Of a stretch of DNA of 64,000 nt, positions 22,645 to 51,817 are shown piece by piece. The translations under genes were made by a program, and so were the position numbers. Source of the stretch: Escherichia phage vB_EcoM_REC. The DNA is taken from the sequence record OM386667.1. One strand, written 5' to 3'. Each line of letters starts with the position of its first letter. Positions within the stretch are counted from its first letter, which is position 1. The notes beneath the pieces were generated by a model. It worked only from the letters and a program-made list of their open reading frames with translations, did no database searches and had not been told where the DNA came from.

Positions 22645-22659
22645 CTTTTGTCTCCTCTA

Positions 22660-22929
22660 TTATTTAAGTGTAATACCAGTTACAGTCAATTCTACTTCCA
22701 AAAGCTTAGATGTGTTTTGGATTGATACTAATTGTGCATGATGGTTTAGTTCTACAGCAGAATAATCATTTTCCCCATCATCTACTTTTAAATAAACAAT
22801 GATTTCACTAAGGTCTAAACCATTTTCGTCAAATGCATTTTCATAGACGAAAGTATCTCCTACATCCAAATCTTTAATGGTAAGGCATCGTTTATTTACT
22901 TTTTGCTCATCAATTTCGAAGTTTAACAC
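22660..22929 (-). CDS. small protein, paralog of 23951-24229
   Basis: 89 aa; shares DLDVG.TF.Y..A..E.GLD ... E.TVT.ITLK with the ORF upstream of the vWA gene. Confidence 0.4.
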   Translation of the reverse strand: MLNFEIDEQKVNKRCLTIKDLDVGDTFVYENAFDENGLDLSEIIVYLKVDDGENDYSAVELNHHAQLVSIQNTSKLLEVELTVTGITLK

Positions 22930-23158
22930 TTCTTCCTCCTAATGTTATCTCCGGTTTGTATATACGAAGAATTATAGCATTTTCATTTTCTTTGTCAACC
23001 CATTCTTCATAATCGGGCCATACATGAATCTCCACTCTACTTACAATATCTTCCATTCGCACAGTCCCAATGAAATACTCTTTGAGACTGCGCATAATGA
23101 AAGCTTCTCTCTCGCGCCAATAATTTTCTATGACTTGAGAGGCAAGCTCGTCGATCAT
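22910..23158 (-). CDS. hypothetical protein
   Basis: 82 aa ORF. Confidence 0.35.
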   Translation of the reverse strand: MIDELASQVIENYWREREAFIMRSLKEYFIGTVRMEDIVSRVEIHVWPDYEEWVDKENENAIILRIYKPEITLGGRSVKLRN

Positions 23159-23949
23159 TTTTTAGCACCTACTTTAACAACCCACTCTCCGAACTCTTCA
23201 GATAAGAGTTTGTCATAAAGCTCTGAATCTGTCAAGTCTAAATCTTTAATGCCAATAAAACCAACATTATCATAAGCATTTGCCAGTTCTTTCAGGAACC
23301 CAAACTTCTCATTACCAACGCCAACCATGAACCAATAAATAGGTTTATTCTTATTCTCTTCAATAAGACGACGAACAGCACTAGGATCACCATTCTCACC
23401 ATCCGTCTGGAAGAATACAACACCAGGGGTAACGTCAGCACCTGGTTCAGATACAGCTACAACTTTTTCACGCTCTACAGACACTGTTTCAGTTTTACCA
23501 AGCAGACGATTAAAGAAGCCTTTCTTTGGAGCCTCCTCTTGTACCACTTGTTTAGTGGTAATATATTTGGTAACAGTGCCAAAATACTCACCGTAGATAT
23601 CTGCCATTACAGGGGCGTAATTTGTTCCACCTCCGATACGAACATTACGCATACATTTACCAACATAGTCATCGTAAACGTCTGCTGTTGCTGGAGTAAG
23701 CTCTTGGGAACTCGTATTGAAGGCCCACATATCAATTTGTTGATTATCGTCGAACAGCATACCAAAAGGAAGCAGTTTACCTACAAAATCACTCACTACC
23801 CCACTAGAATATAGACCATGCATACTACCAGAAATATCTAGAGCACATGCTACACGAAGAACAATCTTACCTTCATTCAGGTTCTTATTCTTTTTCAGAG
23901 AGAAAGCAAGGTTTTCTTGACGTTTTTTCAGGCTGATTTTCTCGGACAT
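23155..23949 (-). CDS. von Willebrand factor A (vWA) domain protein with TerD-like N-terminal strand
   Basis: 264 aa; MIDAS motif DISGSM, later FFQTDGENGD; N-terminus MSEKISLKK...AFSLKK echoes the TerD N-terminal motif. Confidence 0.65.
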   Translation of the reverse strand: MSEKISLKKRQENLAFSLKKNKNLNEGKIVLRVACALDISGSMHGLYSSGVVSDFVGKLLPFGMLFDDNQQIDMWAFNTSSQELTPATADVYDDYVGKCMRNVRIGGGTNYAPVMADIYGEYFGTVTKYITTKQVVQEEAPKKGFFNRLLGKTETVSVEREKVVAVSEPGADVTPGVVFFQTDGENGDPSAVRRLIEENKNKPIYWFMVGVGNEKFGFLKELANAYDNVGFIGIKDLDLTDSELYDKLLSEEFGEWVVKVGAKK

Positions 23950-23950
23950 A

Positions 23951-24229
23951 TTATTTCTCCTTCTTAAGTGTAATATTGGTAACTTCTAAATCTACTTCCA
24001 CCATATTTGTATCTGGTGGGATGCAATGAGTATAGCCTCGTTGTGCTAGTGATCCATTAATACAAATCGCACTGTTTGTGGAATTTTTAATGAACACCAA
24101 GTTACGGTAGGTATCCAACCCTGCGTCTTCATAGGCATCATAATACATGAATGTTGCCCCTACGTCAAGATCTTCGAAAGCAATAGGTAAATCTTGACTT
24201 TTTTCTTCTTGAATATTGAATCTAAACAC
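23951..24229 (-). CDS. small protein, paralog of 22660-22929
   Basis: start placed at the GTG (24229) preceded by AGGAGG at 6-nt spacing, which removes a 74-bp overlap of the longest ORF. Confidence 0.4.
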   Translation of the reverse strand: MFRFNIQEEKSQDLPIAFEDLDVGATFMYYDAYEDAGLDTYRNLVFIKNSTNSAICINGSLAQRGYTHCIPPDTNMVEVDLEVTNITLKKEK

Positions 24230-24785
24230 GCATACCTCCTCTACCAATTTTGAAGCCCAAATCGTAAGCTTCCTTAGTGATCTTTTGTAACTCACTTATA
24301 GGAAGTGTTACAAGAGGATCATCTTCTTCAATTTCCATCTTGTCATCTTCTGTTTCAATGAGAGTATTATGCACTTTGTGATAAGGGTTGTCAACACGTT
24401 TAAACTTATTCTTTTCTGTGCTGAAAAAACAATCTGGATCTTCTTCACCATCACCCCAACCTTGGTTAGGATCTCCGTCAGATTGTTCTGTAGGGATTTC
24501 ACCTGTAAAGTACTCTTCCAGCACCATAGCGATACCGTCCCTTGGATTTGAGGAATGCATCAAATCACAAACCTTACTCCAATCCATAGCCCATTCAAAT
24601 CGTTCACGAACACCATTTTCATCCTCCTTTCCAGAGAAAACACAACCATAACTATCATAGTTCCCATACATCTCTTCAATAACAACACCGTCCTTCAAAA
24701 GAAAGAGGTAGCAAGGTGATCCGTCGAAAGAAGTAGAAAGGGCAGCTTTGCCCGATTCTTTGCACAAAAAGCTAAAACAACCCAT
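24222..24785 (-). CDS. hypothetical acidic protein
   Basis: 187 aa ORF. Confidence 0.4.
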   Translation of the reverse strand: MGCFSFLCKESGKAALSTSFDGSPCYLFLLKDGVVIEEMYGNYDSYGCVFSGKEDENGVRERFEWAMDWSKVCDLMHSSNPRDGIAMVLEEYFTGEIPTEQSDGDPNQGWGDGEEDPDCFFSTEKNKFKRVDNPYHKVHNTLIETEDDKMEIEEDDPLVTLPISELQKITKEAYDLGFKIGRGGMRV

Positions 24786-25183
24786 TACAAACCCTCCTTC
24801 AGATTATCAAGAGCTACAGTGGTTTCACAAAATTCTCCATAAGCTTTATGATGTTCCAGAAAAGCTTCGGGTCCACCCCAGTCATTATCTTGTGTATTCC
24901 AGCCATCAATAAAAGCATCTTCAATGATTGTGATCAGTTCCTGTCGAGTCAGCGTAATGGTATCAGGTTTCTGCGTAGTTTCCACACGGAACCCTGGTTC
25001 TTCATAAAAACCTTTAGTTACAATGGACTCTAACTCTTCTGCATCACAGAGGAAGTAGCCACAAAGATAACACCAACCGTCACCATCTTTCATTACTTCA
25101 TAAACTTCACCACTTGCTAACTTAGTGAAAAGAGTAGGGTCTGTTACTGTAAGTTTTAAAAGAATACCTGTTGGATTATACAT
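24785..25183 (-). CDS. hypothetical protein
   Basis: 132 aa ORF. Confidence 0.4.
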   Translation of the reverse strand: MYNPTGILLKLTVTDPTLFTKLASGEVYEVMKDGDGWCYLCGYFLCDAEELESIVTKGFYEEPGFRVETTQKPDTITLTRQELITIIEDAFIDGWNTQDNDWGGPEAFLEHHKAYGEFCETTVALDNLKEGL

Positions 25184-25349
25184 CTTCTTCCTCCTCTAAA
25201 ATATGGAACCCGTAATTACAATAATCCTGAAAGGTTTCGTGTGCAAGATCTTCTATATCCTCTTGAGACATATCATCTTCAATTTCGATATCCACAACCT
25301 CATTGCATCCACACCAAGCAGTTTCAATATTCACTCGTAATATTTTCAT
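25176..25349 (-). CDS. small acidic Cys-containing protein (57 aa), not in ORF track
   Basis: ATG overlaps upstream stop (TAATG); fills an otherwise empty 165-bp gap. Confidence 0.25.
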   Translation of the reverse strand: MKILRVNIETAWCGCNEVVDIEIEDDMSQEDIEDLAHETFQDYCNYGFHILEEEEDV

Positions 25350-25549
25350 TACTCCTCCTCCTCCTCATTGAAGTCAATATCTGCAAGGAGTTCGAATTTA
25401 CGGAAGTTACGACAACCTTCATAAATATAACAATCACGACAAACTGCTAGAACACTTGGGGGATATATGCCTCCCATCGGTGCGAATCGTTTTTCGTCAT
25501 CATAACGGACACCAATGTCTTCATCAATTATATAGATACGGATTCTCAT
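25349..25549 (-). CDS. hypothetical small protein with acidic tail
   Basis: 66 aa ORF ending EEEEE. Confidence 0.3.
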   Translation of the reverse strand: MRIRIYIIDEDIGVRYDDEKRFAPMGGIYPPSVLAVCRDCYIYEGCRNFRKFELLADIDFNEEEEE

Positions 25550-26658
25550 TTACCAAGCCCTCGTTTCACAGCAGCTACCATCCCGTCTTCCAGAGATTGA
25601 ACTTCATTAATATAATCAACACGAGCAGCACGGGCTTCCGTATTGATGCGGTTAGTTTCTTCCAACATCTTAACCAAGTTTTCCTGATCGTGACGCAGAG
25701 TTTCAATATCCAACACTTGACGGTTAGCCAGTGCTGCTGCTTCGATCTGATTCTGTGTGGCAAGATCGCTACCCAGTTTAATTGCCAGGTTAAATTCATC
25801 AAGAACGTTATTCTGCGTCTCTGCTGCTTTCATTTGACGTAAGCTCTCGATATACATTGAGAAGTTAGCAGAGTAAGCAGGAATAACATTATTTACTATG
25901 TTACGCGCAGATCGCATTAAGCTTGCAGAAACTTTTTGCATACCTTGTACACGCGGTCCCATTTGGACACACAGTAGGCGCAATGCTTTTAAATCTGCAA
26001 TACGAATCTCCAGAAGATCCAAAGTATCTCGGATCACTTGTCGCTGTTCTACTGCATCTTCTGGAAGAGCAGCCAAAGCTTGTTCTTCTTTTTCATAGGT
26101 TGCTGTTAGAAGCTGCATATCTCGGTTCAAACTTGCAGCATATTGTCCAATAGCTTGATGTAGCTTTTCAAGATATACCAAGGAATCTTCTTCTTTGCGA
26201 ATATCCATTTGAAGGTTCTTTACCAACTCTTCAATACGGTTATTAACATTATCAAACTCCCCGAACAGGTCTTCTTTCATACCCATAACTTTTTTAATGA
26301 GTTTAGTAATACCCTTACTTTGTTTAATAGAGTTTGGATCAAGTTGTTTTGCCTGTTTAATCAAAGCTGTGAGTCGTTCACTCATCTGATCGCCTTGATT
26401 ACTACGTTGATGTTTTAACACCTCGGCATTCAAGGAACGCAAGGTTGTTCCTGCCTCTGCCCCAATCTCTTCAATCTCTTGTCGGGTCATAGAAGGCAAA
26501 ACTGGAACTTCTTGCGGTGCCGCTGGTGCATAAACAGGACTGGCATCTAACACGCTTGGAGCGAATACAGATTTACTTGCATCTGTTGTTGCAGCAAATA
26601 CGCTCATTTCAGGCTTCTTCTGACCACCAGTAGCTGCTTTTAAAAATGGACTTGTCAT
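25546..26658 (-). CDS. TelA/KlaA-like coiled-coil protein (toxic-anion-resistance family), tentative
   Basis: 370 aa, predominantly helical/coiled-coil; size and composition fit TelA; the call rests largely on the Ter-gene neighbourhood. Confidence 0.35.
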   Translation of the reverse strand: MTSPFLKAATGGQKKPEMSVFAATTDASKSVFAPSVLDASPVYAPAAPQEVPVLPSMTRQEIEEIGAEAGTTLRSLNAEVLKHQRSNQGDQMSERLTALIKQAKQLDPNSIKQSKGITKLIKKVMGMKEDLFGEFDNVNNRIEELVKNLQMDIRKEEDSLVYLEKLHQAIGQYAASLNRDMQLLTATYEKEEQALAALPEDAVEQRQVIRDTLDLLEIRIADLKALRLLCVQMGPRVQGMQKVSASLMRSARNIVNNVIPAYSANFSMYIESLRQMKAAETQNNVLDEFNLAIKLGSDLATQNQIEAAALANRQVLDIETLRHDQENLVKMLEETNRINTEARAARVDYINEVQSLEDGMVAAVKRGLGK

Positions 26659-27245
26659 TCTTCATTCTCCTCTTCTGCATCTCTTATATATGGTGAAACA
26701 CCGTACTCTTTAGCTACTTTAACCCAATCGTCCCATTTATACAACCATAATTTTCCTTCGGTCCCTTCTTTATCTGATTTCAACCACATATTAGGTTGCT
26801 TACCTGGGTACATGCGATTAGGTTTACGATTATAACCTCTAACACATCTTGTCGCAAACCTATCTACCAGAACAAGAACATATTTATATTCGTGGTTCAA
26901 CGGCTCTTTGGAAGTGGCTTTAGGATTAGCCCCTAATTCTGCTGCCAGTTTTTGCCAATGAGCACCGTGCCTACTAAACTTACCCATACAACCATCAATA
27001 GCATGAGCAATTTCGTGCTTCATTGTATCCACGATCATATCTCTTGTGGAGTTCTTATGCAAGTGCCAATTTACAACAACAATTTTATCTCGGTAGTTGC
27101 ACCAACCGAAAGAGTTATTCACTTTGTTTCTAACACAAGCTTTATATCCTGCTTCACGTAACATGTTGTAGTAAACAGGAAAATCTTCTTTTATTTCCTG
27201 CATCACTTCCCACCACAAGAGTTGCAAGTCTCTCTCGGTATGCAT
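26655..27245 (-). CDS. SprT-like zinc metalloprotease domain protein
   Basis: 196 aa; HEIAHAIDGCMGKFSRHGAHW contains HExxH followed by GHxxxW as in SprT-like domains. Confidence 0.5.
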   Translation of the reverse strand: MHTERDLQLLWWEVMQEIKEDFPVYYNMLREAGYKACVRNKVNNSFGWCNYRDKIVVVNWHLHKNSTRDMIVDTMKHEIAHAIDGCMGKFSRHGAHWQKLAAELGANPKATSKEPLNHEYKYVLVLVDRFATRCVRGYNRKPNRMYPGKQPNMWLKSDKEGTEGKLWLYKWDDWVKVAKEYGVSPYIRDAEEENEE

Positions 27246-27248
27246 AAC

Positions 27249-27842
27249 TTACACCTTAAAAGCGAAATGCGTGGTCGTGGCTTCAAAATCAGGGCCAGAT
27301 AAACTTGCACTGAAATCTGAAATATTTGTAATTAAAAAGCTTTTATGCATACCTAACACAGCCACGCTTTCAATATCTTCTACTAACATTTCAATCATGT
27401 TAGAAACATGGCTGAACGTATAGTTTTGTTTTTTGATGGTGTAGAAAGAAAGACTCCCACCTGCTGTATAAGATACCTCTTCAAAATCTTTAATCGTATA
27501 TTGTGTGCCATCAGTAAAGAAAATGGTAGCTTTATTAGTAGCACGTTTCTTGTTTTTTGGTCCTTTTTTACGTTTACTGCGAGTAGGCAAACCGTTTGGG
27601 AACACCATAGCTACAAATTCTTCAGGAGAAACCTCCTTACCGAAATCATAACCGTAAGAAACAGCGTCTATAAACTCGTCGTCTTCATTTTTAAAATAAT
27701 GAAAATAGGGCCAATTTGAGAGATTATCGAGCATCTTATGCTCATCCACAGCAGAGAACGTATCCCTCAAAGCACGTGTGATTTGCAAAGCATTAGGCAA
27801 ACTTTTAACACCTGTAATGGAAGTACGAATAGAAATTGTCAT
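27249..27842 (-). CDS. hypothetical protein
   Basis: 197 aa ORF. Confidence 0.4.
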   Translation of the reverse strand: MTISIRTSITGVKSLPNALQITRALRDTFSAVDEHKMLDNLSNWPYFHYFKNEDDEFIDAVSYGYDFGKEVSPEEFVAMVFPNGLPTRSKRKKGPKNKKRATNKATIFFTDGTQYTIKDFEEVSYTAGGSLSFYTIKKQNYTFSHVSNMIEMLVEDIESVAVLGMHKSFLITNISDFSASLSGPDFEATTTHFAFKV

Positions 27843-27856
27843 TGTTTTTCTCCTTA

Positions 27857-28294
27857 TTAACGTCGCTTGCTACGAGATGAACTCTTTTTACTTAAAGGGC
27901 TATTGTAAGATTTACGAGTTGTATAGCTACTATTTGTTTTAAAAGTTTGTCTCGGCTTTTCATAAGTTTTTATCTCTTGTTTAGGCTTACCATAAAAATT
28001 AGTTTTCGGTTTAGGTGTATTATAATGCTTATTAATAATCGTTCTGTTATCGTTATAATCCCCACTGCTACGATTACTACCGCCACTCATCATATGCCCT
28101 AACAACATACCTGTAGCAAACTCACCAACACCGCTACTACTAGAACCGCCACCATTGTTGATAATAGTTGTATCTCCGTCAGATCCTTGTTGAGCGTATT
28201 GTTGAGGAGGTTGTTGGTATTGTGCAGGATTTGTTTCATCCTCGCAAGCTGTTAAAAAGATACAACCAATTAAAATCAGGGCTAGTTTTTTCAT
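27857..28294 (-). CDS. lipoprotein, Gly/Ser-rich with basic C-terminus
   Basis: start placed at MKKLALILIGCIFLTAC (lipobox LTAC) preceded by GAGGAAA RBS; C-terminus SKKSSSRSKRR. Confidence 0.5.
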   Translation of the reverse strand: MKKLALILIGCIFLTACEDETNPAQYQQPPQQYAQQGSDGDTTIINNGGGSSSSGVGEFATGMLLGHMMSGGSNRSSGDYNDNRTIINKHYNTPKPKTNFYGKPKQEIKTYEKPRQTFKTNSSYTTRKSYNSPLSKKSSSRSKRR

Positions 28295-28481
28295 ATTTGC
28301 TTTCCTCGTTTTGGCTATTAATACATCTGTGTTTGAAATCTCCAGAGAAGCAATAAAGTTGCTCTCCATCTCGGTATAAACTCACTTTACTGCCGTTGAT
28401 TACGCTTGTCAATACAAAAATTACAACAAACAACCCTATTGCAAAACAGATATTTTCAAACACAACCAACAAGTATTTCAT
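28236..28481 (-). CDS. small membrane protein (uncertain)
   Basis: 81 aa with hydrophobic N-terminus; overlaps the lipoprotein start region, so one of the two calls may be wrong. Confidence 0.25.
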   Translation of the reverse strand: MKYLLVVFENICFAIGLFVVIFVLTSVINGSKVSLYRDGEQLYCFSGDFKHRCINSQNEESKYEKTSPDFNWLYLFNSLRG

Positions 28482-28828
28482 TTTAAAAACACCTCATCAT
28501 CAGTCTCATTATCCCAGAAGAACAAATCCCAACCATTTGGATCATTCCATTTGGCTGCTGGAGAAGTCCATATTTGCTCAATATCAATATTCAAAACTTC
28601 ACCGTTTCGTTTTGAAACAGCTTTAGTTAATTCCCAACGAGATACAGGCTCTACTTCTCCTGAACCACTTCCACAACAAGCTACAACATTAGGAGGCAAA
28701 TTAATTGGATCTTTGGTCACAATCATAACGCTTACCCCAGGGTAAACTTTTGAAAGATAATCTGAAATGTAATCCACATCACCAGATAAATCCCAAACAA
28801 GTTCTTGAATTTCATCAAAATTACTCAT
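28478..28828 (-). CDS. hypothetical protein
   Basis: 116 aa ORF with AGGAGAG RBS. Confidence 0.4.
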   Translation of the reverse strand: MSNFDEIQELVWDLSGDVDYISDYLSKVYPGVSVMIVTKDPINLPPNVVACCGSGSGEVEPVSRWELTKAVSKRNGEVLNIDIEQIWTSPAAKWNDPNGWDLFFWDNETDDEVFLK

Positions 28829-28870
28829 AAGTCTCTCCTATAAAATAGCCTCCCGAAGGAGGCTCATTTA

Positions 28871-29845
28871 TTAAACAGTAGCTTCTTCTTTTTCAGGGAA
28901 GATAAAGCTTGCAATAACACCAAGAGCTAATGTGCCCAGGACAATATACATACTAATAGTTGGATCAATGTGCGCTGGCAGGAAGCTCATTTTTTCATGT
29001 AACGTTTCTGCAAACGGGTGATACATTAGTTTAACACCTACAAACACCAGAACCACAATAACTGCTTTCTCCAAGTGAACCAGATACTTCAGTGCAACAC
29101 TAAGAACAAAGAACAGAGCACGTAGACCTAAGATTGCACATAACATCGAAGAGAATACAAGCAGAGGTTCTTGTGTTACTGCGATCACTGCCGGAACAGA
29201 ATCTACTGCAAAGATTACATCAACCATTTCCATCACGAATACGCAAACCAAAGCTGGAGTTGCTACACGAACACCATTTTCGATTGTGAAGAACTTCTCC
29301 CCATCCATTTTATTAGATACAGGGAACAGTTTACGAACAATACGGGTAGCCCAGTGTTTAGAGTAATCAACTTCTGCGTCATTATTTCCAGCAAATACCA
29401 TTTTAGCTGCACAGAAAAGGATGACCGCACCGAAGAAGATATTAACATACCAGCCCAAACTTAACAAGTAAGTGCCTACTGCTACAAACACACCTCGGAA
29501 GACAATCGCACCTGCAATACCCCAAAGTAGAATCTTGTGCTGCAAGTGTGTGCTTTTAATACCAAAACTTGCGAATACTGCTACAAATACTACCAAGTTA
29601 TCTACCGACAAAGATTTTTCCAACACATATCCACTTAAAAACAAGTTAGCAAAATCGGCACCATGTTGGAAGTATACAAAACCATAATAAGCTAATGATA
29701 CACCAATCCAAAAGATCGACCAACCAACTGCGGATTTGAATGAAATTTCTTTATTTTCTTTGTGACCAAAGAAATCAATACCAATAGACAATGCTAAAAT
29801 ACCAACTAAAACAACTACATCAATAATTGGGAAACCAAGTTGCAT
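28871..29845 (-). CDS. terC: TerC-family integral membrane protein
   Basis: 324 aa, multiple TM helices; FGHKENKEISFKSAVGWSIFWIGVSLAY and LEKSLSVDNLVVFVAVF match the TerC/Alx signature. Confidence 0.85.
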   Translation of the reverse strand: MQLGFPIIDVVVLVGILALSIGIDFFGHKENKEISFKSAVGWSIFWIGVSLAYYGFVYFQHGADFANLFLSGYVLEKSLSVDNLVVFVAVFASFGIKSTHLQHKILLWGIAGAIVFRGVFVAVGTYLLSLGWYVNIFFGAVILFCAAKMVFAGNNDAEVDYSKHWATRIVRKLFPVSNKMDGEKFFTIENGVRVATPALVCVFVMEMVDVIFAVDSVPAVIAVTQEPLLVFSSMLCAILGLRALFFVLSVALKYLVHLEKAVIVVLVFVGVKLMYHPFAETLHEKMSFLPAHIDPTISMYIVLGTLALGVIASFIFPEKEEATV

Positions 29846-29924
29846 TCTTTTCTCCTCTCTTTGCGGGGAACTATTCCCCGCTTCATGTGATATATCTTAC
29901 TCTTTTTAAGAACTATGTCAACAC

Positions 29925-30146
29925 TTATTTTGTTGAATGAGAGGAAAAGATTCCTCGTAATACAGCCAGAATAAACGAAACACAAACCACGGTCCAGAAG
30001 GTTACTGGGACAGTGATATCTGCATGACCCATAACTTCAGCAACATAGTTGTAAGCCAGCAACAGTAACCAAGCTGGAATCAAACTAAGCATAAAAGCAA
30101 TAACAAAAAAGCTTACCACTGCAACAATACCTGCAAAAACACCCAT
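29925..30146 (-). CDS. small membrane protein (two predicted TM helices)
   Basis: 73 aa hydrophobic ORF. Confidence 0.4.
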   Translation of the reverse strand: MGVFAGIVAVVSFFVIAFMLSLIPAWLLLLAYNYVAEVMGHADITVPVTFWTVVCVSFILAVLRGIFSSHSTK

Positions 30147-30158
30147 ACTAATCTCCTC

Positions 30159-30632
30159 TTAAAGTTTATAAATAGTCACATCGTGACCTGTTTTTACTAA
30201 AGTTTCTTCAATCATCACTTGGATGATAGCCCAATTACCTCCAGCATATCCAGCGCCAATCATAGGTAAGCCGATCTTACATTTTTGGTCACGGAGAAGC
30301 AAATCGTTAGCCATAGCTATTAGTGCATCGTAAAGTGCATCATAGTCCAACTGACGACCTTTAGCATTGTATCCGTAACGGTATTGCCCGTATAGATTAT
30401 ATACCAAAGGGTCTGATTGTTCGTCTGGCACCCCTAAACTAAAACAACCTAGTTTACTTTGATCACCAGCCGTTGTGTCTAAGTCTGCTGCATATGCGTA
30501 AGGAAATGCTTGTTTGATTTGTGGGGCAATACCTGCCCCCATATTACACATACAGTTGCAACAATGAGCAATAACAGTTACTTCACCTGCTTTAGCGGCA
30601 TCAATAAGATTACCTGTTTTCATTTTAAGCAT
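30159..30632 (-). CDS. macro-domain-like protein (ADP-ribose / Appr-1-p processing family), tentative
   Basis: start placed at the internal ATG (30632) with AAGGAG RBS just after the upstream stop; VTVIAHCCNCMCNMGAGIAPQIKQAF and IGLPMIGAGYAGGNW resemble macro-domain nucleotide-binding loops. Confidence 0.4.
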   Translation of the reverse strand: MLKMKTGNLIDAAKAGEVTVIAHCCNCMCNMGAGIAPQIKQAFPYAYAADLDTTAGDQSKLGCFSLGVPDEQSDPLVYNLYGQYRYGYNAKGRQLDYDALYDALIAMANDLLLRDQKCKIGLPMIGAGYAGGNWAIIQVMIEETLVKTGHDVTIYKL

Positions 30633-30645
30633 TTTTAGCTCCTTA

Positions 30646-31473
30646 TTACAGAATGTGTTGTTTTGTGTAACGATCCAAGAATTCAAAGTTTTCAGCATAC
30701 TTTGAAATTCGGTTGTAACCTTCTCCCAAGCATCCAAAGAAAAGTTGCTCTACATAGTAATGTGGCAATTGGCTAAGAATGATTTTGAAGTCTTCATGAT
30801 TTTGGCCCATAAGATACTTAATAGGACGAACAAGACACTGTGCATCACGTTCTTCACTAATCATTTTAACAAACGCTTCTGGTGTATTAATGTAGTTAAA
30901 ATTCAGTTTAGCTTCGGTATCTGCTTGATTACCTTCGTATTTTGCAAAATACAAGAAGTAAACATCATTTTTAACTTGATTTTCATCAAGGATCTCAATC
31001 AGTTTGTCTTCATGCGTTCCAGTGATATTTACATCATCAATGAATACAAGCTTCTTATCACCCCAGAATTCTTTGTTGCAGTAGAATGTATCACCATCAA
31101 TAAGTTTCTTACGACTAGCTTTATCCAAGAAACCATAATCGTTGATATAGCTAACTTTACGATGAATAATGTCCAGTTCTGCTGAACGACCTTGATCATA
31201 TTGTGATTGCAACATATTAAAATAATTAATAAAATGATCTGTCATCATTGTTGCAGCATTATGCACATGGTTATAAGGAGAAGGAATGATAACAAATTGT
31301 TCCCCAATATGTTTCATTGCCACTTGAGCAAAAAACTGAAGTGCCAATTCTTTACCCATACGACGCGCAGCTTGGTTACTACCAAATTTCAATTTTGAAT
31401 AATCTTGGATATCAAAAGTAGCAGTTTCCAGGTCATCAAATTTATTTGCAAAAATTTGAGTTTGATTACGCAT
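30646..31473 (-). CDS. phosphoribosyltransferase (PRTase type I)-like protein
   Basis: 275 aa; KLVFIDDVNITGTHEDKL matches the PRPP-binding loop pattern (hydrophobic run, DD, then TG-T). Confidence 0.5.
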   Translation of the reverse strand: MRNQTQIFANKFDDLETATFDIQDYSKLKFGSNQAARRMGKELALQFFAQVAMKHIGEQFVIIPSPYNHVHNAATMMTDHFINYFNMLQSQYDQGRSAELDIIHRKVSYINDYGFLDKASRKKLIDGDTFYCNKEFWGDKKLVFIDDVNITGTHEDKLIEILDENQVKNDVYFLYFAKYEGNQADTEAKLNFNYINTPEAFVKMISEERDAQCLVRPIKYLMGQNHEDFKIILSQLPHYYVEQLFFGCLGEGYNRISKYAENFEFLDRYTKQHIL

Positions 31474-32122
31474 TTACAATTTCTCCTCTTTTAAGTTTCT
31501 CTAGTAAGTCGTTAGGGTTCTTAATATGACAGAAGTTAAATCCTAAGTCAACACATTTTCCATCATATTCTTCACTATCGCCTACGTGCAACACTTCGTG
31601 CCCTAACAGAGGGATCGGAGAATACGTGAGCGTGCGAGCAAAGAATCGCGGATCTGGTTTACAAAGTAAAGCTTCATCCGAGAAATGGGTGAACTCAAAA
31701 CAATTCCAACTATCAAACTTACAAGCACGACGCAGGATATCCCCTGATATGAAGTTGGTATTGCTCTTAATACTCAAATCATAACGCCCCGAAAGATACA
31801 GCAAGTACATCGGCAGATCCACGGCTACGTGTGGTGGAAACTTAAGGAACCACTGTTCACACTCGAAACGAAGCTTTGCAGACTTCCAAGGCGTTATCCC
31901 AAGTTCAGAACCAAGTCTTTCCCAGGCGTATGCTGCACACTCGGCTTTGCCTTGAAGTGCTGCATTATCCAGTTCCTTTTTGATCTTCTTATAAGCTGCT
32001 CTTGCTTCCACTTCCGTAATATCTCCATATTTTGCGATAGTCCAGGCTCGCATGTCTGCGTAATTGGAGTTTGCTGTGATCAGTGTGTTCCATACATCAA
32101 AAGAGATATGTTTAATAGTCAT
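31466..32122 (-). CDS. HAD-superfamily hydrolase (phosphatase)
   Basis: 218 aa; motif I ISFDVWNTL (D-x-W-x-T variant), motif III LCKPDP, motif IV HVGDSEEYD. Confidence 0.6.
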   Translation of the reverse strand: MTIKHISFDVWNTLITANSNYADMRAWTIAKYGDITEVEARAAYKKIKKELDNAALQGKAECAAYAWERLGSELGITPWKSAKLRFECEQWFLKFPPHVAVDLPMYLLYLSGRYDLSIKSNTNFISGDILRRACKFDSWNCFEFTHFSDEALLCKPDPRFFARTLTYSPIPLLGHEVLHVGDSEEYDGKCVDLGFNFCHIKNPNDLLEKLKRGEIVNA

Positions 32123-32123
32123 A

Positions 32124-32729
32124 TTAAGCCCACCATGCGTCTAAGTTAAGATTACTGTCTACCACAACTTGTTCTATGTGGTAGCCTTTTATCTGTATCC
32201 CACTGTTCAAGAGCATATCATACGCTTCATTGAAACGCAACTTATCTTCTGCGGAATATAAGCGAGCATTATAAAATCGGTAATCAATTTCTTCAGCATT
32301 AGAAGAAATACGGAAGAAGTTTGTTTCTACTTCGGGATCACTTGCTGAAGTCTTAATGTGAACTTCTCCATAATTTTCTTTACTTAGATCCATGAAAAGA
32401 ACACAGGCAACATGTTTAAACATTCGTTCCAGTTTGTAACGAACAACATTGAAACCTGCATTCTCAAGTTTTTCTACACACTGCAACATTAAAGTAGTGT
32501 CGAGATCGCTTTGATACTTTGTTAACATACGATCACGTTGAGACTTTGTATCCCGATGTAAATCAATTGTTGTGCATTTGGCACCAATAATCTTAGCTGC
32601 TTTCATCAACTCTTCAGAACTAACGTTAGATAAAGTAAGATGAAAATGGGCTTTCCACACTTTTTTAGCAGGGACACCAAAAGATTTATCCCCACTATTC
32701 GGCATGTTGACTACTACACTATGTTGCAT
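32124..32729 (-). CDS. hypothetical protein (one H-x-T-x motif; possible 2H-phosphoesterase relative, unproven)
   Basis: 201 aa; KAHFHLTLSN contains a single H-x-T-x tetrapeptide; a second clear motif was not found. Confidence 0.35.
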   Translation of the reverse strand: MQHSVVVNMPNSGDKSFGVPAKKVWKAHFHLTLSNVSSEELMKAAKIIGAKCTTIDLHRDTKSQRDRMLTKYQSDLDTTLMLQCVEKLENAGFNVVRYKLERMFKHVACVLFMDLSKENYGEVHIKTSASDPEVETNFFRISSNAEEIDYRFYNARLYSAEDKLRFNEAYDMLLNSGIQIKGYHIEQVVVDSNLNLDAWWA

Positions 32730-39660: not shown

Positions 39661-40014
39661 TTAGTTTACATCGTTTAGAGCATTACCAATCTTTAAGATA
39701 ATAACATCGTTAAGGGCTTCTTCTCCATTAAGGCCAGAGAAAGCAGGAGTAACGAAAGTTACCATATAATAATGGTCTTCTTGTAGGATTGCGATAACGC
39801 CGTCTAGTTTAACATCTCCTGTGAAACGAAAAACTTTCAACTTTTGTTCTAAAGGAAGATCTCCTTCAACATTTAAAACCATATCTCCAACACCAAACTT
39901 TTCTGCCCCGATGTAGATGTAAGCTTGGTCCTCTTTTTTATGATAATACAGTGTTGCTTGTTTGTCTTGTAGTGTTGTGATACCAAACACATCTACATCA
40001 ATAATATTTTTCAA
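39661..40014 (-). CDS. hypothetical protein
   Basis: start placed at a TTG 5-6 nt after GGAGGAG to avoid a 61-bp overlap; start uncertain. Confidence 0.3.
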   Translation of the reverse strand: MKNIIDVDVFGITTLQDKQATLYYHKKEDQAYIYIGAEKFGVGDMVLNVEGDLPLEQKLKVFRFTGDVKLDGVIAILQEDHYYMVTFVTPAFSGLNGEEALNDVIILKIGNALNDVN

Positions 40015-40379
40015 AAATTCTCCTCCCAAATCCAATAATTGTCTACATAAGTAGGATGCCTTTTGTCCCACTCTTTTCTAGCCCAAGCCACGGCTGCTAT
40101 CAATACATCTCCATGACAAGGTTGAGGGGAGCAGAAGCAAACTAAATCTTTCCCTTCTAGCTCTAATAAATCTTCAAGAGTGATCTTACCACAACGAATT
40201 TGCTCCCACAACCACTCTTTATACCTTTGTATAGTTGATCCTCGTGGTTCATCATCTTTTAACTTAAAAGGGTTTGCAAACTTGGAGGCTTTTAGTCCCA
40301 TGTGTGGCATTGCTCTACCAATATAAACAGCACCTTCTGGGATTGTTTTGCCTAAATGGTAAAAGTTTAATACCTTCAT
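40011..40379 (-). CDS. DUF4326-like phage protein
   Basis: 122 aa; GRAMPHMGLKASKFANPF...YKEWL...GKDLVCFCSPQPCHGDVL follows the conserved pattern of this phage/plasmid family. Confidence 0.5.
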   Translation of the reverse strand: MKVLNFYHLGKTIPEGAVYIGRAMPHMGLKASKFANPFKLKDDEPRGSTIQRYKEWLWEQIRCGKITLEDLLELEGKDLVCFCSPQPCHGDVLIAAVAWARKEWDKRHPTYVDNYWIWEENF

Positions 40380-46420: not shown

Positions 46421-46777
46421 ATGAAAAAACTAATCTTAGCCACATTGCTGGCTACCGTAAGCTTCACCACTTACGCTCAAAAATTTGTAGCAGTTAAAAC
46501 AGATATTGGTAAAGATGTTGTGATCACAGGCAACAAGTTTTACTATACACCTGGGAATGGTGTTCTAGAAGAGTGTAAAGATGTTGAGGCATATACGGGA
46601 AAAGAAGATAACACGGAACGTCCTTTTTATTCGATTATAGCTACTTGCAAAAATGAAATAGTAGCTATTAAACAATACAAAGATGCCCCTGGAGGAGAAT
46701 ACTTATTAGTCAAGAATATTAAGAGTGAAAAAACTGCAAAGTTTACAGTAATTATTTTAAAAGGAGAAACGTTCTAA
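46421..46777 (+). CDS. secreted hypothetical protein
   Basis: start at MKKLILATLLATVSFTTYA (signal peptide) preceded by GGAGGGAAG. Confidence 0.45.
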   Translation: MKKLILATLLATVSFTTYAQKFVAVKTDIGKDVVITGNKFYYTPGNGVLEECKDVEAYTGKEDNTERPFYSIIATCKNEIVAIKQYKDAPGGEYLLVKNIKSEKTAKFTVIILKGETF

Positions 46778-47916
46778 TGAAATACACTATTTTTGGAGAT
46801 GTAGCTGTTGTAAATAAGGAATATGGCGTTGAAGCTAATAAACTTCCTGCTGGAGTTTGGGTTGTCAACTGCGATCCGCACGGTAACTACTCTTTAGTGC
46901 GTGGTGAAAGTTTCTCTCTTCCGAACACTCTTTATGGGGAAACTAAAGATCGCGCCGCACATGTTATTAAAACATTTGCTCGTCGTAGTAAAGAAGGTAA
47001 AAATACTGGGGTGTTACTGACAGGGACAAAAGGCAGTGGTAAGACGATGTTAGCTAAACTAATTAGCATGTCTCTAATGTCCACAGAAGGTTTAGGTATT
47101 CCAACCATTTTGGTTACACAGCCTTACACAGATGCTGGCTTCTTAGAATTTATGAGTAAAATTACAGATCGTGCTGTTGTTTTATTTGACGAATTTGATA
47201 AAGTGTACGCTAAGAAAGAAGATCAGGAAGCACTGTTGACCTTGTTGGATGGAACAGGAAGTGGGAATAAACTTTACATCCTCACTAAAAATAGTGGTTA
47301 TATCTCGGAATATTTTGTAAACCGTCCTAGTCGTATCTACTACAGTTTCAATTACGATAAACTGTCTAGTGAAACTATGTTAGATTACTTGGATAAGAAC
47401 TTGGTAAATAAAAAGCACGTAGATAACTTCCAACGTTTATGGGATGTTAGCACAGAGTTGTCTTTCGATGTTATTCAAGGCATTGTAGAAGAATTGAATT
47501 TCTATCCAAAAATGACTTTTAAAGAATGTCTTGAAATGATGGGTATTTCTTTAGGGAACGATGCTAAATGGAATGTGGCTTCTATCGTAGCTAATGGCAA
47601 AACCTTGAAGGTGAATTGGATCAATAACTGGCACGACTTCACCCCTACTAAGTTTTTGTCGGGTGCTTGTTCCCTGAACATCTATCTACAAAGTTTGAAA
47701 GATGATGAAGTGGAAGCAATGGAAACCAACAGTTATGTTATCCTGGATGAAGATGGTGATCCACATATTGATCTATGTGCAACGGCTGATGGTCTAACTT
47801 GTGATCTGATTGAAGGTGGTAAGATTCTGGTTATGAGCACTACACCAGGAAACACTTTGCGAGTGGTGCTGGAGCCTGTAACACAACGTTCCACTACACT
47901 TGGTAGCGTGTTCTAA
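46777..47916 (+). CDS. P-loop ATPase (AAA-like)
   Basis: 379 aa; GVLLTGTKGSGKTMLAK (Walker A) and AVVLFDEFDKV (Walker B). Confidence 0.55.
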   Translation: MKYTIFGDVAVVNKEYGVEANKLPAGVWVVNCDPHGNYSLVRGESFSLPNTLYGETKDRAAHVIKTFARRSKEGKNTGVLLTGTKGSGKTMLAKLISMSLMSTEGLGIPTILVTQPYTDAGFLEFMSKITDRAVVLFDEFDKVYAKKEDQEALLTLLDGTGSGNKLYILTKNSGYISEYFVNRPSRIYYSFNYDKLSSETMLDYLDKNLVNKKHVDNFQRLWDVSTELSFDVIQGIVEELNFYPKMTFKECLEMMGISLGNDAKWNVASIVANGKTLKVNWINNWHDFTPTKFLSGACSLNIYLQSLKDDEVEAMETNSYVILDEDGDPHIDLCATADGLTCDLIEGGKILVMSTTPGNTLRVVLEPVTQRSTTLGSVF

Positions 47917-48004: not shown

Positions 48005-49465
48005 GTGCCAAAAATAGTCACTTGGGAACAATATAAAACAGATATAAAACAAGCTTATCAAGGTAAGTCTTGGACTGTTGTAGATTATATTGAGCCGTGG
48101 AACGGCAATAAAACTAAACTTAGATGCATCTGTGCTCTGCATGGAGAATGGAAAACAACAAGCATAAATACCGCTAAACTAGGGAGGGGTTGTCCAGAAT
48201 GCGGTAGGGAGATTATAAGTAAAGCAGTATCTATAAACAAATCAAAAACCTGGGAGCAATATAAAGAAGAAGTGCAAACCACTTACAATCAGGCAGGTAA
48301 GTTTTGGACTGTTACAGGATGGCACGGAGAATGGAAAGGATGGAATACTAAACTGGTTTGTTGTTGTGCTTTACATGGGGAGTGGAGGTCTACTTCTATA
48401 TCTTCTGCGAAAAACGGGAGTGGATGCAGGAAGTGTATGGGAGAAGCAAACAGAGAAAGAACATCGATTGCATGGGAGAAACATAAAGAAGAAGTAGAAG
48501 AAGCTTATAAAGAAAAACCCTGGATTGTTAGAGGCTATGTGGAACCGTGGAACGGTTCCCGCACTAAGTTGATTTGTGAGTGTAAGGTTCATGGTCAATG
48601 GTGCACTACCACTGTAAACAGTGCTAAACAAGGGACTGGATGCTACAGTTGTCAAAGAGAAATGACGAAACAAAGGAATACAATGGAGGATAAACAACAT
48701 GTTGAAGATTTTATAAAAGCTTGTCCTGATAATGTAGAGCGTAAATATTATCGTAGCGATAGAGTAGATAGATTAGGTCGTCAGGTTTACTGGATTGTAG
48801 AATGTCCTATATGTGCAGAGGATGATTATTGTAAAGAAGGCTTATGCGATAATAAATTTGAGATGAAGATGAGTCATTTGAAAAGGGGTGGCCTTCCTTG
48901 CCGTTGTTCTAAATATTATCATTACACTCCTGAACAATGGGCCTACCGTATGACCAAAGCTTGCCAGGAACGAGGGGATCAATTTATAGGATTCATTGAT
49001 AAGGTAAGCAATAACAGCAAGTTTAAATATCTATGTAGGGAGCATGGAGAGCAAACGATCACACCTACCGATTATCTCAATGGGAAAGGTTGTCCAGGCT
49101 GTAAGAACAGAAATATGCAAGAATTTTACATCAATATTATTCTTGATGAGTACGGAGAAGACACGGGAGCTTACAAGTTGGGGATTGCAAAGGACAGTGA
49201 TATCAGGATCAAAGGGCAGAATGCAAACAACAATTACTCTATGCGCCGTATAGCATTGTTCGATCTGCCGTCCTACCAAGCTTGCAGGGCGTTAGAGAGT
49301 AAGCTAAAGTCTAAGACTGATCAGATTCTACCGTCTATTGGCTGTGTAGAACGCTTGCACATGAAAGATGGTCATAGTGAAACCTTCCTGCGCGAGGATT
49401 TGGCTATCGTCTTAAGTGCTATCAACCAAGCAGGTGGAATAATGAGAGAGGAGGAAACATGTTAG
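48005..49465 (+). CDS. zinc-ribbon-repeat protein with C-terminal T5orf172 (GIY-YIG-like) domain, possible homing-endonuclease-type element
   Basis: 486 aa, GTG start; three tandem units of W.G..TKL.C.C..HG.W..T.I..AK.G.GC..C plus a fourth Cys-rich unit; C-terminus FYINIILDEYGEDTGAYKLGIAKDSDIR...FDLPSYQACRALESKLK resembles T5orf172. Confidence 0.45.
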   Translation: MPKIVTWEQYKTDIKQAYQGKSWTVVDYIEPWNGNKTKLRCICALHGEWKTTSINTAKLGRGCPECGREIISKAVSINKSKTWEQYKEEVQTTYNQAGKFWTVTGWHGEWKGWNTKLVCCCALHGEWRSTSISSAKNGSGCRKCMGEANRERTSIAWEKHKEEVEEAYKEKPWIVRGYVEPWNGSRTKLICECKVHGQWCTTTVNSAKQGTGCYSCQREMTKQRNTMEDKQHVEDFIKACPDNVERKYYRSDRVDRLGRQVYWIVECPICAEDDYCKEGLCDNKFEMKMSHLKRGGLPCRCSKYYHYTPEQWAYRMTKACQERGDQFIGFIDKVSNNSKFKYLCREHGEQTITPTDYLNGKGCPGCKNRNMQEFYINIILDEYGEDTGAYKLGIAKDSDIRIKGQNANNNYSMRRIALFDLPSYQACRALESKLKSKTDQILPSIGCVERLHMKDGHSETFLREDLAIVLSAINQAGGIMREEETC

Positions 49466-49837: not shown

Positions 49838-50017
49838 ATGGCACGTTTAGCAGATCATGAAATCTTTAAACCTATTCTGAACCACTATGATGAACTTAAA
49901 GCAGTGTTGGATTGTTATAGAGAGGATGAAGAACGTTTGGAAGTCAATCTTAAGATAGTTCTGATGAAAGCTTTTCAAGACGGGCAAGCTAAAGTTTTAG
50001 AAGGCATGAAAAAATGA
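49838..50017 (+). CDS. hypothetical small protein
   Basis: ATG at 49838 preceded by AAAGGAGAAACT. Confidence 0.35.
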   Translation: MARLADHEIFKPILNHYDELKAVLDCYREDEERLEVNLKIVLMKAFQDGQAKVLEGMKK

Positions 50018-50556
50018 GAATAACTGATGAATATGTATTCTTCTTTTCACATAAAGATGTGTTTAGTAATTGGTATATTGCACCCTTTACAGAAACTGAA
50101 CCAGGTTACAATGAGACTTTCTGTTGTGTTGAGCAATATATGATGTGGCGTAAGGCTTTGCTGTTCAAGGATCATGCGATTGCAGCAGCTATCCTTGATC
50201 ACTCAACTATACGTGACAACGAGAGGAAACAAGCATACTACAAACGTATGGGTCGAGCGGTATCTGGTTTTAATAATGATATGTGGGAAGAGAACCGTGA
50301 GCGTATTGTTATGCGAGGCTTATGCTTGAAATATGTACAGAATCCAGATTTGTATGCAGACTTACACCTTTACCAATACAAAACGTTTGTTGAAGCAAGT
50401 CCTTACGATAAGGTTTACGGTATTGGAATGGGAATGTATGAACCAGGGGTGCTAAACCCTGCTACCTGGAAAGGGCAGAATCTTTTAGGCAAATATCATA
50501 ATAAACTGATCGAAATACTTTTCCCAGACAAAATACCGCAAAGACGATATTTGTGA
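50014..50556 (+). CDS. NADAR-domain protein (YbiA/DUF1768 family)
   Basis: 180 aa; FSNWYIAPFT, CVEQYMMWRKALLF, KYVQNPDLYADL, YDKVYGIGMG and GQNLLGKYHNKL follow the conserved NADAR blocks. Confidence 0.7.
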   Translation: MRITDEYVFFFSHKDVFSNWYIAPFTETEPGYNETFCCVEQYMMWRKALLFKDHAIAAAILDHSTIRDNERKQAYYKRMGRAVSGFNNDMWEENRERIVMRGLCLKYVQNPDLYADLHLYQYKTFVEASPYDKVYGIGMGMYEPGVLNPATWKGQNLLGKYHNKLIEILFPDKIPQRRYL

Positions 50557-50650: not shown

Positions 50651-50798
50651 TATACAAACCCTTGTCTTTTTCAGTTTGCATCACTAGGATTCGATCTGAG
50701 TGGGTTCCTGAAGGTTTACCAATAAGATTAAAGGTTATATCAAATTCCCACTATCTTTTATCTCAAAAATCCCTCAAATTATTTAAACTTTTTAAGAA

Positions 50799-50984
50799 TT
50801 TACAAAAGTGAAAGTTGAAAACCAAAATTTAAAGTTTAGGAAAATTATCTTAAAATGTTAGATACAAAACAAAACTCAAAAGTCAAGGAAAATTTTAAAA
50901 ATTTTGCGCGCCCACAGTATTTAAAGTTTTTTTGCTTTTACAAAAATGAAAGTACAAAAGCAAAATTTAAAGTTTACAAAAATT
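50799..50984. repeat. AT-rich region with two 48-bp imperfect direct repeats and AAAGTT-type submotifs
   Basis: 50799-50846 TTTACAAAAGTGAAAGTTGAAAACCAAAATTTAAAGTTTAGGAAAATT versus 50937-50984 TTTACAAAAATGAAAGTACAAAAGCAAAATTTAAAGTTTACAAAAATT. Confidence 0.7.
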
Positions 50985-51000
50985 TTTATGCAGGTGAAAA

Positions 51001-51114
51001 TGAGAAGAGTTCTCATATGGAAATGCAAATGATAATGATTCGCATTTAAGTTTATAAATGAGATTGATTCTTATTTAATAAGGTAAATGACAATCATTCT
51101 CATTTAGAGAATGA
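51001..51114. promoter_or_regulatory. two palindromes (candidate protein-binding sites)
   Basis: TGAGAA-gag-TTCTCA at 51001-51015 and TCATTCTC-attta-GAGAATGA at 51094-51114. Confidence 0.4.
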
Positions 51115-51364
51115 CGCGCAGGGGTGGTGTTTGTCTCGCGCTCCCGTGTCCCCTCGCCATGTAATAAGAATAACAGATCCAACCAGGAAAGCAAGCGATT
51201 ATTTTATCTTTACATTTCTTTACAAATATATAGCACCCAGCCTACCGGCGATCAACCTTCCAACCAGTGCCCCCTGGTATGTTAGCCCCGCCTTTACGCC
51301 GTGGGGTGGCGCTTCCTCTTCTGTATGTAAAACAGTATAAGCCCGATCCCTGGGCTTGTCAAGA

Positions 51365-51631
51365 TTATTTTTTGTTTTCTTGCCAGGATAGGACACCTAA
51401 CCAAAAATACATATCGCCCCGCGCCCCTGGTGGTATCTTGCTTTCCCCGCCGCCACTGCAAGCCCATAGATAACCATTTGCGAACGTATCAAAATGATCT
51501 ATCTCTTCCACCTTATGATCGCCCAGGTTGAGAACGGTTTCAACCTTTAAGCCTGTTGCGCTTGCTACCTGGTGGACCGTGCCGCCTTGCCAGCCCAATG
51601 AGTGCATAAGGTGTAATGTAGTATTTGTCAT
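51365..51631 (-). CDS. hypothetical protein encoded in a GC-rich island, opposite orientation to the early genes
   Basis: 88 aa ORF with ATG at 51631 preceded by AAAGGG; local GC content clearly higher than flanks; weak support. Confidence 0.25.
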   Translation of the reverse strand: MTNTTLHLMHSLGWQGGTVHQVASATGLKVETVLNLGDHKVEEIDHFDTFANGYLWACSGGGESKIPPGARGDMYFWLGVLSWQENKK

Positions 51632-51739
51632 GATATCGCCCTTTCTTTGTTGTGCGCCCTGGTTGGCGCGGTAGAAAGATAATAGCCCTTTTCTTTATAT
51701 ATAGCAAGCAAAAAGAAAATAAAAAAGATTGAAAAATGG

Positions 51740-51796
51740 TTGACGTTAACCAGGCGGCGGCGTAGTATTCATCTTGTAGGGCGGCAATGGTGCCGC
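51740..51796 (+). promoter_or_regulatory. early promoter-leader module (TTGACG-17-TAGTAT plus hairpin GCGGCA-atgg-TGCCGC)
   Basis: -35 51740-51745, -10 51763-51768, hairpin 51781-51796, ATG at 51818. Confidence 0.6.
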
Positions 51797-51817
51797 TCAC
51801 TATTTGGAGTTAAGATC

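Follow-up and report, generated by a model that had tools for sequence, protein, structure and literature searches.

What does a phage of Escherichia coli gain from a gene that database records label 'GTP cyclohydrolase II' and whose product carries a NADAR domain? The gene occupies positions 50014-50556 on the plus strand of a 64,000-nucleotide stretch of Escherichia phage vB_EcoM_REC (OM386667.1), hereafter the window. A previous interpretation made without database searches (the sequence-only reading) had proposed that it reverses the ADP-ribosylation of nucleic acids and that, with a macrodomain, it equips the phage against toxins of the DarT type. We conclude that the product, hereafter the window NADAR, is a genuine NADAR protein and probably a stand-alone ADP-ribosylglycohydrolase, the Phapecoctavirus ortholog of the phage protein AdfN^Bas60, predicted to act as a lesion-directed eraser that neutralises DarTG1.

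NADAR fold and ADP-ribose site

All three conserved blocks on which the sequence-only reading had relied are held by the open reading frame (ORF), which in the ORF list of the window starts with ATG and codes for 180 amino acids: FSNWYIAPFT (residues 17-26), CVEQYMMWRKALLF (residues 38-51) and GQNLLGKYHNKL (residues 154-165). The family search that the same reading had suggested gave a match to the Pfam NADAR profile PF08719 (DUF1768) of 122.1 bits (E=3.4e-35, curated cutoff 35.1), which begins at residue 11 and spans profile positions 3-154 of 163. NADAR is the sole Pfam family at E<=1, and the protein is a single domain. Further matches were obtained to PHROG 1017, whose function is unassigned (E=3.8e-51), to the PDB chain 8BAU, the NADAR protein of Phytophthora nicotianae (PnNADAR; E=1.2e-12), and to 725 homologs at E<=1e-5 in a collection of 5.8 billion proteins, PF08719 being present on all 120 of the homologs listed. 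The NADAR assignment is far beyond chance.

The AlphaFold2 model of the window NADAR has a mean predicted local distance difference test score (pLDDT) of 95.5 and a predicted template modelling score of 0.89. Only two significant matches were returned by Foldseek against the PDB, 8BAU (the complex of PnNADAR with ADP-ribose, ADPr; E=1.7e-9, template modelling (TM) scores 0.79/0.75) and 2B3W (E. coli YbiA, TM 0.66/0.70), and the model shows the YbiA-like fold, an alpha-helical core with two small flanking beta-sheets. The fold whose absence would have counted against the earlier proposal is, in fact, present.

PnNADAR is the best match of solved structure, by sequence as well as by fold (Schuller et al., Mol Cell 2023). 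Residues were mapped by a HMMER alignment to 8BAU, in which chain numbering equals paper numbering +2, and their roles were taken from Schuller et al. (2023). At 28% identity, the ADPr-contacting and catalytic residues of PnNADAR are conserved or conservatively replaced in the window NADAR (E43 as E40, K50 as K47, K75 as K77, R79 as R81, Y84 as F86, W89 as W91, R93 as R95, E125 as E127, D130 as D132 and W133 as Y135). Both proteins stand alone, with no link to DarT, PnNADAR being eukaryotic. Conservation was counted in an alignment of 83 homologs of the window NADAR: E40, K47, G80, W91, E127 and D132 are invariant (83/83), and K77 and R81 are kept in 81 of the 83.

The catalytic glutamate and lysine, seven residues apart, have their equivalents in PnNADAR (E43/K50), in AdfN^T4, the NADAR protein gp30.3 of phage T4 (E36/K43), and in DarG1 of E. 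coli C7 (E88/K95), and the alignment shows the pair conserved also in T4 gp30.3 and YbiA. The exchanges E36A and K43A abolish the function of AdfN^T4, and the catalytic residues of C7 DarG1 are E88, K95 and D171. The second acidic position sorts the family, since glutamate, as in E127, is the mark of the YbiA or stand-alone type, whereas aspartate is found in DarG1 and other DarT1-linked NADARs (D171 in C7) and histidine in T4-type AdfN.

The window NADAR has a complete ADPr-binding pocket, which would also suit a protein that binds ADPr without catalysis and thereby inhibits an effector that hydrolyses NAD+. This is reportedly the case for U56, a NADAR protein of phage T5 that, in a 2024 study of Retron-Eco1, is said to bind ADPr and to inhibit the retron. 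We consider such a role very improbable here, since none of 83 homologs departs from E40, K47 or E127, a strictness that points to selection on catalysis and not on binding alone. Moreover, T5-like NADARs (AdfN^Bas32) belong to another, archaeal-like clade than the protein of Bas60, and no T5-like phage is among the 718 phage records matched by tblastn. The NAD+-rebuilding system NARP3, described in a paper that mentions NADAR, rests on a PnuC/NadR pair and bears no relation to the window.

Table 1. Positions of the NADAR gene, its catalytic codons and the macrodomain gene in the window
Feature	Positions	Strand	Basis
NADAR-family ADP-ribosylglycohydrolase gene (predicted), 180 aa	50014..50556	+	ORF, Pfam PF08719, AlphaFold2, Foldseek, Bas60 orthology
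Translation start region: GAAGG at 50000-50004, 9-nt spacer, ATG	50000..50017	+	direct sequence reading
Codons E40 to K47 (EQYMMWRK), catalytic Glu and Lys	50131..50154	+	alignment to 8BAU
Codons E127-A-S-P-Y-D132, second acidic catalytic position (PnNADAR E125) and D130 equivalent	50392..50409	+	alignments
Stand-alone macrodomain gene, 157 aa from ATG 30632; candidate thymidine-ADPr hydrolase	30159..30632	-	T4 Tk.4/AdfM and SCO6735 homology

Orthology with AdfN^Bas60 and the predicted target

The phage protein gp30.3 (AdfN) of T4 strips ADP-ribose from DNA and defeats DarTG1 (Johannesman, Carlson & LeRoux, bioRxiv 2024, Nat Commun 2025; PMC11257639 / PMC11825919). In the same study two unrelated phage NADARs, AdfN^Bas32 and AdfN^Bas60, neutralised DarT1 in uninfected cells and let three phages sensitive to DarTG1 plate several logs better, but did not rescue a phage blocked by DarTG2 (PMC11257639 / PMC11825919). 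Bas60-62 are phi92-like phages, now placed in Justusliebigvirus, the sister genus of Phapecoctavirus within Stephanstirmvirinae. The gene of AdfN^Bas60 is bas60_0111 of Escherichia phage PaulScherrer (QXV83846.1; MZ501100.1, 82014-82565), annotated as 'putative YbiA-like N-glycosidase', and the window NADAR is 57% identical to its product over 172 residues (E=9e-68). The order AAA-ATPase, CapR-domain protein, NADAR and a gap of ~0.8 kb is common to both (PHB05 and PaulScherrer were compared), and, given this shared order and the 57% identity, the window gene is the positional ortholog of AdfN^Bas60. Like AdfN^Bas60, its product matches PF08719, the NCBIfam model TIGR02464 and the PADLOC model PDC-M42C and has a Glu-type active site; by contrast, a 6-residue insertion that follows residue 33 is missing from the window NADAR, whose C-terminal tail also differs, and Phapecoctavirus has two extra small ORFs (121 and 59/71 residues) between the CapR-domain and NADAR genes.

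DarT1 joins C1'' of ADP-ribose to the N2 amino group of guanine in single-stranded DNA, and NADARs hydrolyse this bond (Schuller et al. 2023). As the sequence-only reading had stated, NADARs act on guanine: every subtype or family tested in the literature removes ADPr from guanine (G-ADPr) and none removes it from thymine (T-ADPr). In an E. coli host that carries DarTG1, DarT1 would modify guanine N2 in single-stranded phage DNA and block replication. The phage NADAR would then bind the ADP-ribose, with K77 and R81 on the pyrophosphate, F86 stacked on the adenine and W91, R95, D132 and Y135 surrounding the riboses. Catalysis through E40, K47 and E127 would hydrolyse the N-glycosidic bond between ribose and guanine, so that guanine would be restored and replication could proceed. 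An enzyme that acts on the lesion and not on the toxin should work against any guanine-N2 ADP-ribosyltransferase. This proposal joins the ORF, family, fold, active-site residues, orthology, synteny and genus-wide conservation found here to the DarT1 neutralisation and DarTG1 rescue published for the 57%-identical ortholog, and the same activity, and the same use, would be expected in the infection cycle of the window protein's own phage.

AdfN^T4 belongs to the same superfamily and has the same proposed role, that of a phage orphan 'antitoxin' that removes G-ADPr against DarTG1. A BLASTP comparison of the window NADAR with T4 gp30.3 was not significant (E=4.1), and AdfN^T4 has histidine where the window NADAR has E127; the window NADAR is therefore not of the gp30.3 clade. 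T4-type AdfN is related to DarG1, and the Bas60 clade groups with stand-alone bacterial NADARs (PMC11257639 / PMC11825919); the separate clades of AdfN^T4 and AdfN^Bas60 indicate independent acquisition. AdfN^T4 performs best on the modified DNA of T-even phages, while AdfN^Bas60 shows no specificity for particular phages. DarG1, the antitoxin of DarTG1 (BC4488 family; structure 8BAT from G. lovleyi, and E. coli C7), shares the fold and carries out, on the same lesion, the reaction that we propose for the window NADAR. Unlike DarG1, the window NADAR has no adjoining darT1 gene and no N-terminal beta1-beta2-alpha1 extension, its model having a single short strand before the core helix, and its second acidic catalytic residue is a glutamate instead of the aspartate. 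Placement within the family rests on YbiA, T4 gp30.3, Bas60, PnNADAR and metagenomic or bacterial homologs. Membership of the NCBIfam family DS32_2, 'NADAR family anti-phage protein', was not found (15.4 bits, cutoff 240).

Several observations weigh against a DarTG1 eraser. The window protein differs from AdfN^Bas60 in 43% of its residues, and the evidence for AdfN^Bas60 is one of sufficiency under ectopic expression only, not of necessity in its own phage. YbiA and T4 gp30.3 hydrolyse G-ADPr in vitro yet do not rescue uninfected E. coli from DarT1, so activity on G-ADPr in vitro is no guarantee of protection in cells. Two positions of the ligand shell hold minority residues, N87 (aspartate in 65 of the 83 homologs) and Y135 (tryptophan in 65 of the 83). 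A promoter and terminator scan of 43.5-53.5 kb found 35 promoter-like sites, with 27.8 +/- 4.7 expected from shuffled sequences; as the sites do not exceed this expectation, we make no claim on early or late expression. Finally, the window NADAR passes TIGR02464, 'riboflavin biosynthesis intermediates N-glycosidase', with 114.9 bits (cutoff 73.7).

The last of these points, like the GenBank labels 'GTP cyclohydrolase II', 'COG3236' and 'putative YbiA-like N-glycosidase', would fit a housekeeping N-glycosidase that, as YbiA, destroys reactive intermediates of riboflavin biosynthesis. The same model gives YbiA 169.5 bits and AdfN^Bas60, for which activity against DarT1 was demonstrated experimentally, 109.4 bits, so a match to it does not discriminate between the two roles. 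YbiA shares with the window NADAR the core fold, the Glu-type site and the passing of TIGR02464, but it is a chromosomal housekeeping gene of an SOS operon. The identity between the two is 29% over 96 residues (E=3e-6), against 44-49% with stand-alone bacterial NADARs other than YbiA. The window NADAR is a single domain with no RibA or GTP_cyclohydro2 domain, none of the window proteins scanned is the product of a rib gene, and it is not obvious why a lytic phage would need riboflavin damage control. A riboflavin role is, in our view, extremely improbable.

The Glu-type site and the greater closeness to stand-alone bacterial NADARs and to PnNADAR than to DarG1 or T4-type AdfN raise another question, namely whether DarT1 is the primary, or the only, target. 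Members of the stand-alone 'NADAR' and YbiA families also remove ADPr from cytidine (C-ADPr) in DNA and RNA, which DarG1 and the T4 NADAR do not, and the best match in the defence databases is PADLOC PDC-M42C (E=3.6e-35), a component of an uncharacterised multi-gene candidate system. The protein could, in that case, erase cytidine as well as guanine ADPr from DNA or RNA and serve against other, perhaps still undiscovered, ADP-ribosylating defences or, in a variant, degrade soluble immune signals or toxins derived from ADPr, the class of targets favoured by Iyer et al. (2022). The sole functional data for the clade, those on AdfN^Bas60, nevertheless concern DarT1 and DarTG1, no cytidine- or RNA-targeting defence ADP-ribosyltransferase that such an enzyme would counter is known in E. 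coli, and we found no literature on PDC-M42. As the primary role this broader activity seems unlikely, though not negligible, and it is compatible with action against DarTG1, the two not being mutually exclusive.

PDC-M42C matches both Stephanstirmvirinae NADARs, that of the window and that of Bas60, at E~1e-35, which may point to an ADP-ribosylating system other than DarTG1. We judge it decidedly unlikely that these proteins are the orphan 'antitoxin' of another such defence (e.g., PDC-M42), erasing G- and C-ADPr on DNA and RNA, and not primarily directed against DarT1. If they were, the NADAR and an AdfM-like macrodomain would together give near-complete cover against nucleic-acid ADP-ribosylation.

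A macrodomain gene in the same genome

The expectation that the phage encodes a macrodomain besides the NADAR was borne out, although the two genes are not adjacent. The most likely start of the macrodomain ORF (30159-30737, minus strand) is the ATG at 30632, the resulting length being that annotated in phage ESCO37. The product falls below the cutoff of the Pfam Macro profile (20.6 bits, cutoff 22), and its sequence matches in the PDB are SCO6735 of Streptomyces coelicolor (5e3b, E=5e-12, the best), TARG1 and DarG macrodomains. Its AlphaFold2 model (pLDDT 94.3) matches TARG1 (E=3e-11) and Taq DarG (5m3e, E=1.7e-9), as well as BT1257, Mtb DarG and SCO6735, in Foldseek. By these matches it is a macrodomain of the DarG/TARG1/SCO6735 (ALC1-like) class.

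The macrodomain protein is 36% identical to Tk.4 of T4 (E=7e-21), with which it shares the NLYxQ motif. Tk.4 is AdfM, the factor that T4 needs against DarTG2 (2025 HIDEN-SEQ preprint). In the window protein the motif reads NLYGQ, and its Q83, together with H23 and N26, is invariant in 70/70 homologs; these three residues correspond to the essential Q85 and to H24 and N27 of SCO6735, whereas DarG and TARG1 have a catalytic lysine where both proteins have glutamine. SCO6735, for which Q85 is essential, cleaves thymidine-ADPr and protects against DarT. The PADLOC DarG model matches the window protein (E=2.8e-10), and in the NCBIfam DarG model it covers positions 2-147 of 338 with 34 bits (cutoff 250). 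Unlike DarG, it has no C-terminal DarT-binding domain, and the DarG architecture beside darT2 was not found; T4 AdfM is likewise an orphan, its match to the DarG models being confined to their macro half. This separate macrodomain would probably do for the thymidine-ADPr made by DarT2 what the NADAR is proposed to do for guanine.

Some 20 kb separates the two genes, which are on opposite strands and are not joined in an operon; they are at best functional companions and not parts of one module. Megablast detected the NADAR gene in 70 phage records and the macrodomain gene likewise in 70, distributed over organisms in the same way, a pattern that points to their co-occurrence across Phapecoctavirus. 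No further NADAR or macro paralogs were found within the window. Homology to AdfN^Bas60 (57%, anti-DarT1) and to T4 Tk.4/AdfM (36%, anti-DarTG2) supports the earlier suggestion that the phage is equipped against DarT-type toxins, and the prediction follows that Phapecoctavirus would be intrinsically resistant to DarTG1 and DarTG2.

Much of this was known. The idea of a NADAR plus a macrodomain is already published, since T4 carries AdfN and AdfM (2025) and since Iyer et al. (2022) described large phages in which NADAR and Macro occur together. The NADAR domain as a guanine-ADPr eraser dates from 2023, and phage NADARs, including the sister-genus ortholog, were described as anti-DarTG1 factors in 2024-25. 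With mechanism, phage role and NADAR-plus-macro pairing published in 2022-2025, no new question is opened. What is new here is the placement of the Phapecoctavirus gene in the AdfN^Bas60 clade, the corrected annotation and the AdfM-like macrodomain in the same genome. The clade is thus extended to a second genus, and a natural variant diverged to 57% identity becomes available for structure-function studies. Replacing the labels 'GTP cyclohydrolase II' and 'hypothetical protein', which the gene bears across about 70 Phapecoctavirus genomes, is of modest practical value; several of these phages are considered for therapy of avian and uropathogenic E. coli.

The macrodomain gene lies within a Ter-type stress or metabolite cluster on the minus strand (22042-32729), whereas T4 AdfM stands next to tk. 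The cluster codes for a TerD-like protein ('general stress protein 16U'), a vWA-TerF-like protein (PF10138, E=4e-37), a TelA-like protein, a SprT-like metallopeptidase, an integral membrane protein, the macrodomain, a ComF-like phosphoribosyltransferase (PF15610, E=1e-41) and a HAD hydrolase. The cluster is similar to the Ter-associated 'nucleoside-like metabolite' gene sets that Anantharaman, Iyer and Aravind are said to have described, and the macrodomain may have its function within this cluster.

Genomic setting and other features of the window

The window region is 99-100% identical to genomes of Phapecoctavirus, the phAPEC8-like E. coli myoviruses of Stephanstirmvirinae (e.g., ESCO37, phAPEC8_ev052 and nieznany), and the 70 records with the NADAR gene show 86-100% nucleotide identity. 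The gene is labelled there 'hypothetical protein', 'GTP cyclohydrolase II' or 'Uncharacterized domain COG3236 / GTP cyclohydrolase II'. We rejected the identity as GTP cyclohydrolase II on the domain content described above, and the label is a carry-over from RibA-fused members of the COG3236 family.

The phages in the 718 tblastn records are mostly large myoviruses and comprise Stephanstirmvirinae, relatives of PVP-SE1 and 4MG, Herelleviridae (phages of Staphylococcus, Listeria, Enterococcus and Bacillus) and Lak megaphages, a spread that agrees with what Iyer et al. (2022) found in their survey. The closest named 'bacterial' homologs are those of the Burkholderia pseudomallei group (42-44% identity; gene at 5001-5480 of Burkholderia contigs). 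Their neighbours (Gp3-like, DUF7696 and bactofilin-domain genes) are prophage-like, and some members of the 'stand-alone bacterial NADAR' clade may therefore be carried by phages. No ADP-ribosyltransferase partner was found near the closest bacterial homologs, these being the prophage-like Burkholderia genes and a Kofleriaceae copy that stands alone. The rpsU-dnaG-rpoD locus of E. coli O157:H7 Sakai has no NADAR gene, tblastn over 50 kb returning nothing.

In the window, the NADAR gene closes a plus-strand block that begins at a divergent intergenic region near 44.3 kb and in which it is preceded by the AAA-ATPase gene (46777-47916), the CapR-domain gene (48005-49465) and the two small ORFs. 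Its ATG shares ATGA (50014-50017) with the TGA of the preceding 59/71-residue ORF, an overlap that points to co-transcription with the plus-strand genes before it, or to translational coupling with them. Among the neighbours scanned there is no adjoining darT1 or other ADP-ribosyltransferase gene, and the upstream plus-strand neighbours (CapR-domain protein, 121-residue and 59/71-residue ORFs) gave no ADP-ribosyltransferase or DUF4433 match. The CapR-domain protein (486 residues) has five CapR-homology, zinc-ribbon-like repeats (PF21817, E=1e-28), is labelled 'endonuclease' and belongs to PHROG 681; its gene is kept beside the NADAR gene in Phapecoctavirus and Justusliebigvirus.

RNA genes were not found by ARAGORN or by Rfam, which was run in gathering mode on the whole window and in E-value mode on 50.5-52.1 kb, the latter with no match. 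A protein at 40011-40379 (minus strand) matches DUF4326 (PF14216, E=1e-21) and is labelled in ESCO37 as 'putative ribonucleoside-diphosphate reductase 1 alpha subunit', likely a mis-annotation; we considered it as a distant NADAR relative and rejected this (hhalign probability 0.3%).

The family-A DNA polymerase ORF (10845-14177, minus strand) is 735 nucleotides (245 residues) longer than in the near-identical ESCO37, and the long form occurs in 33 phage records, as an in-frame length polymorphism. Pfam found no intein or homing-endonuclease domain in the long ORF. The length difference means that the window is a mosaic and not ESCO37 itself. At 17575-20147 (minus strand), three consecutive genes have weak glycosyltransferase matches (GT1/GT4-like, and a sub-threshold match to TET-associated glycosyltransferase, TAGT); they may form a module for DNA or surface glycosylation, which could affect the recognition of phage DNA by an ADP-ribosyl eraser.

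The NADAR gene is followed by 0.8 kb free of genes. Within 50700-51100 lies an AT-rich tract (24-26% GC) with a 72-nucleotide direct repeat (50775-50846 and 50913-50984), and the ~910 bp at 50893-51799 are unusually conserved, with ~85% nucleotide identity to Justusliebigvirus phages, compared with 57% amino acid identity for the NADAR. Four imperfect palindromes, AAATGAgA-N6-TcTCATTT, are spaced by 29 nucleotides (at 50998, 51027, 51056 and 51085) and are followed by a segment of 48-52% GC. This stretch (50700-51800) resembles an array of iterons or operators next to an unwinding region and is therefore a candidate for a replication origin or a regulatory hub.

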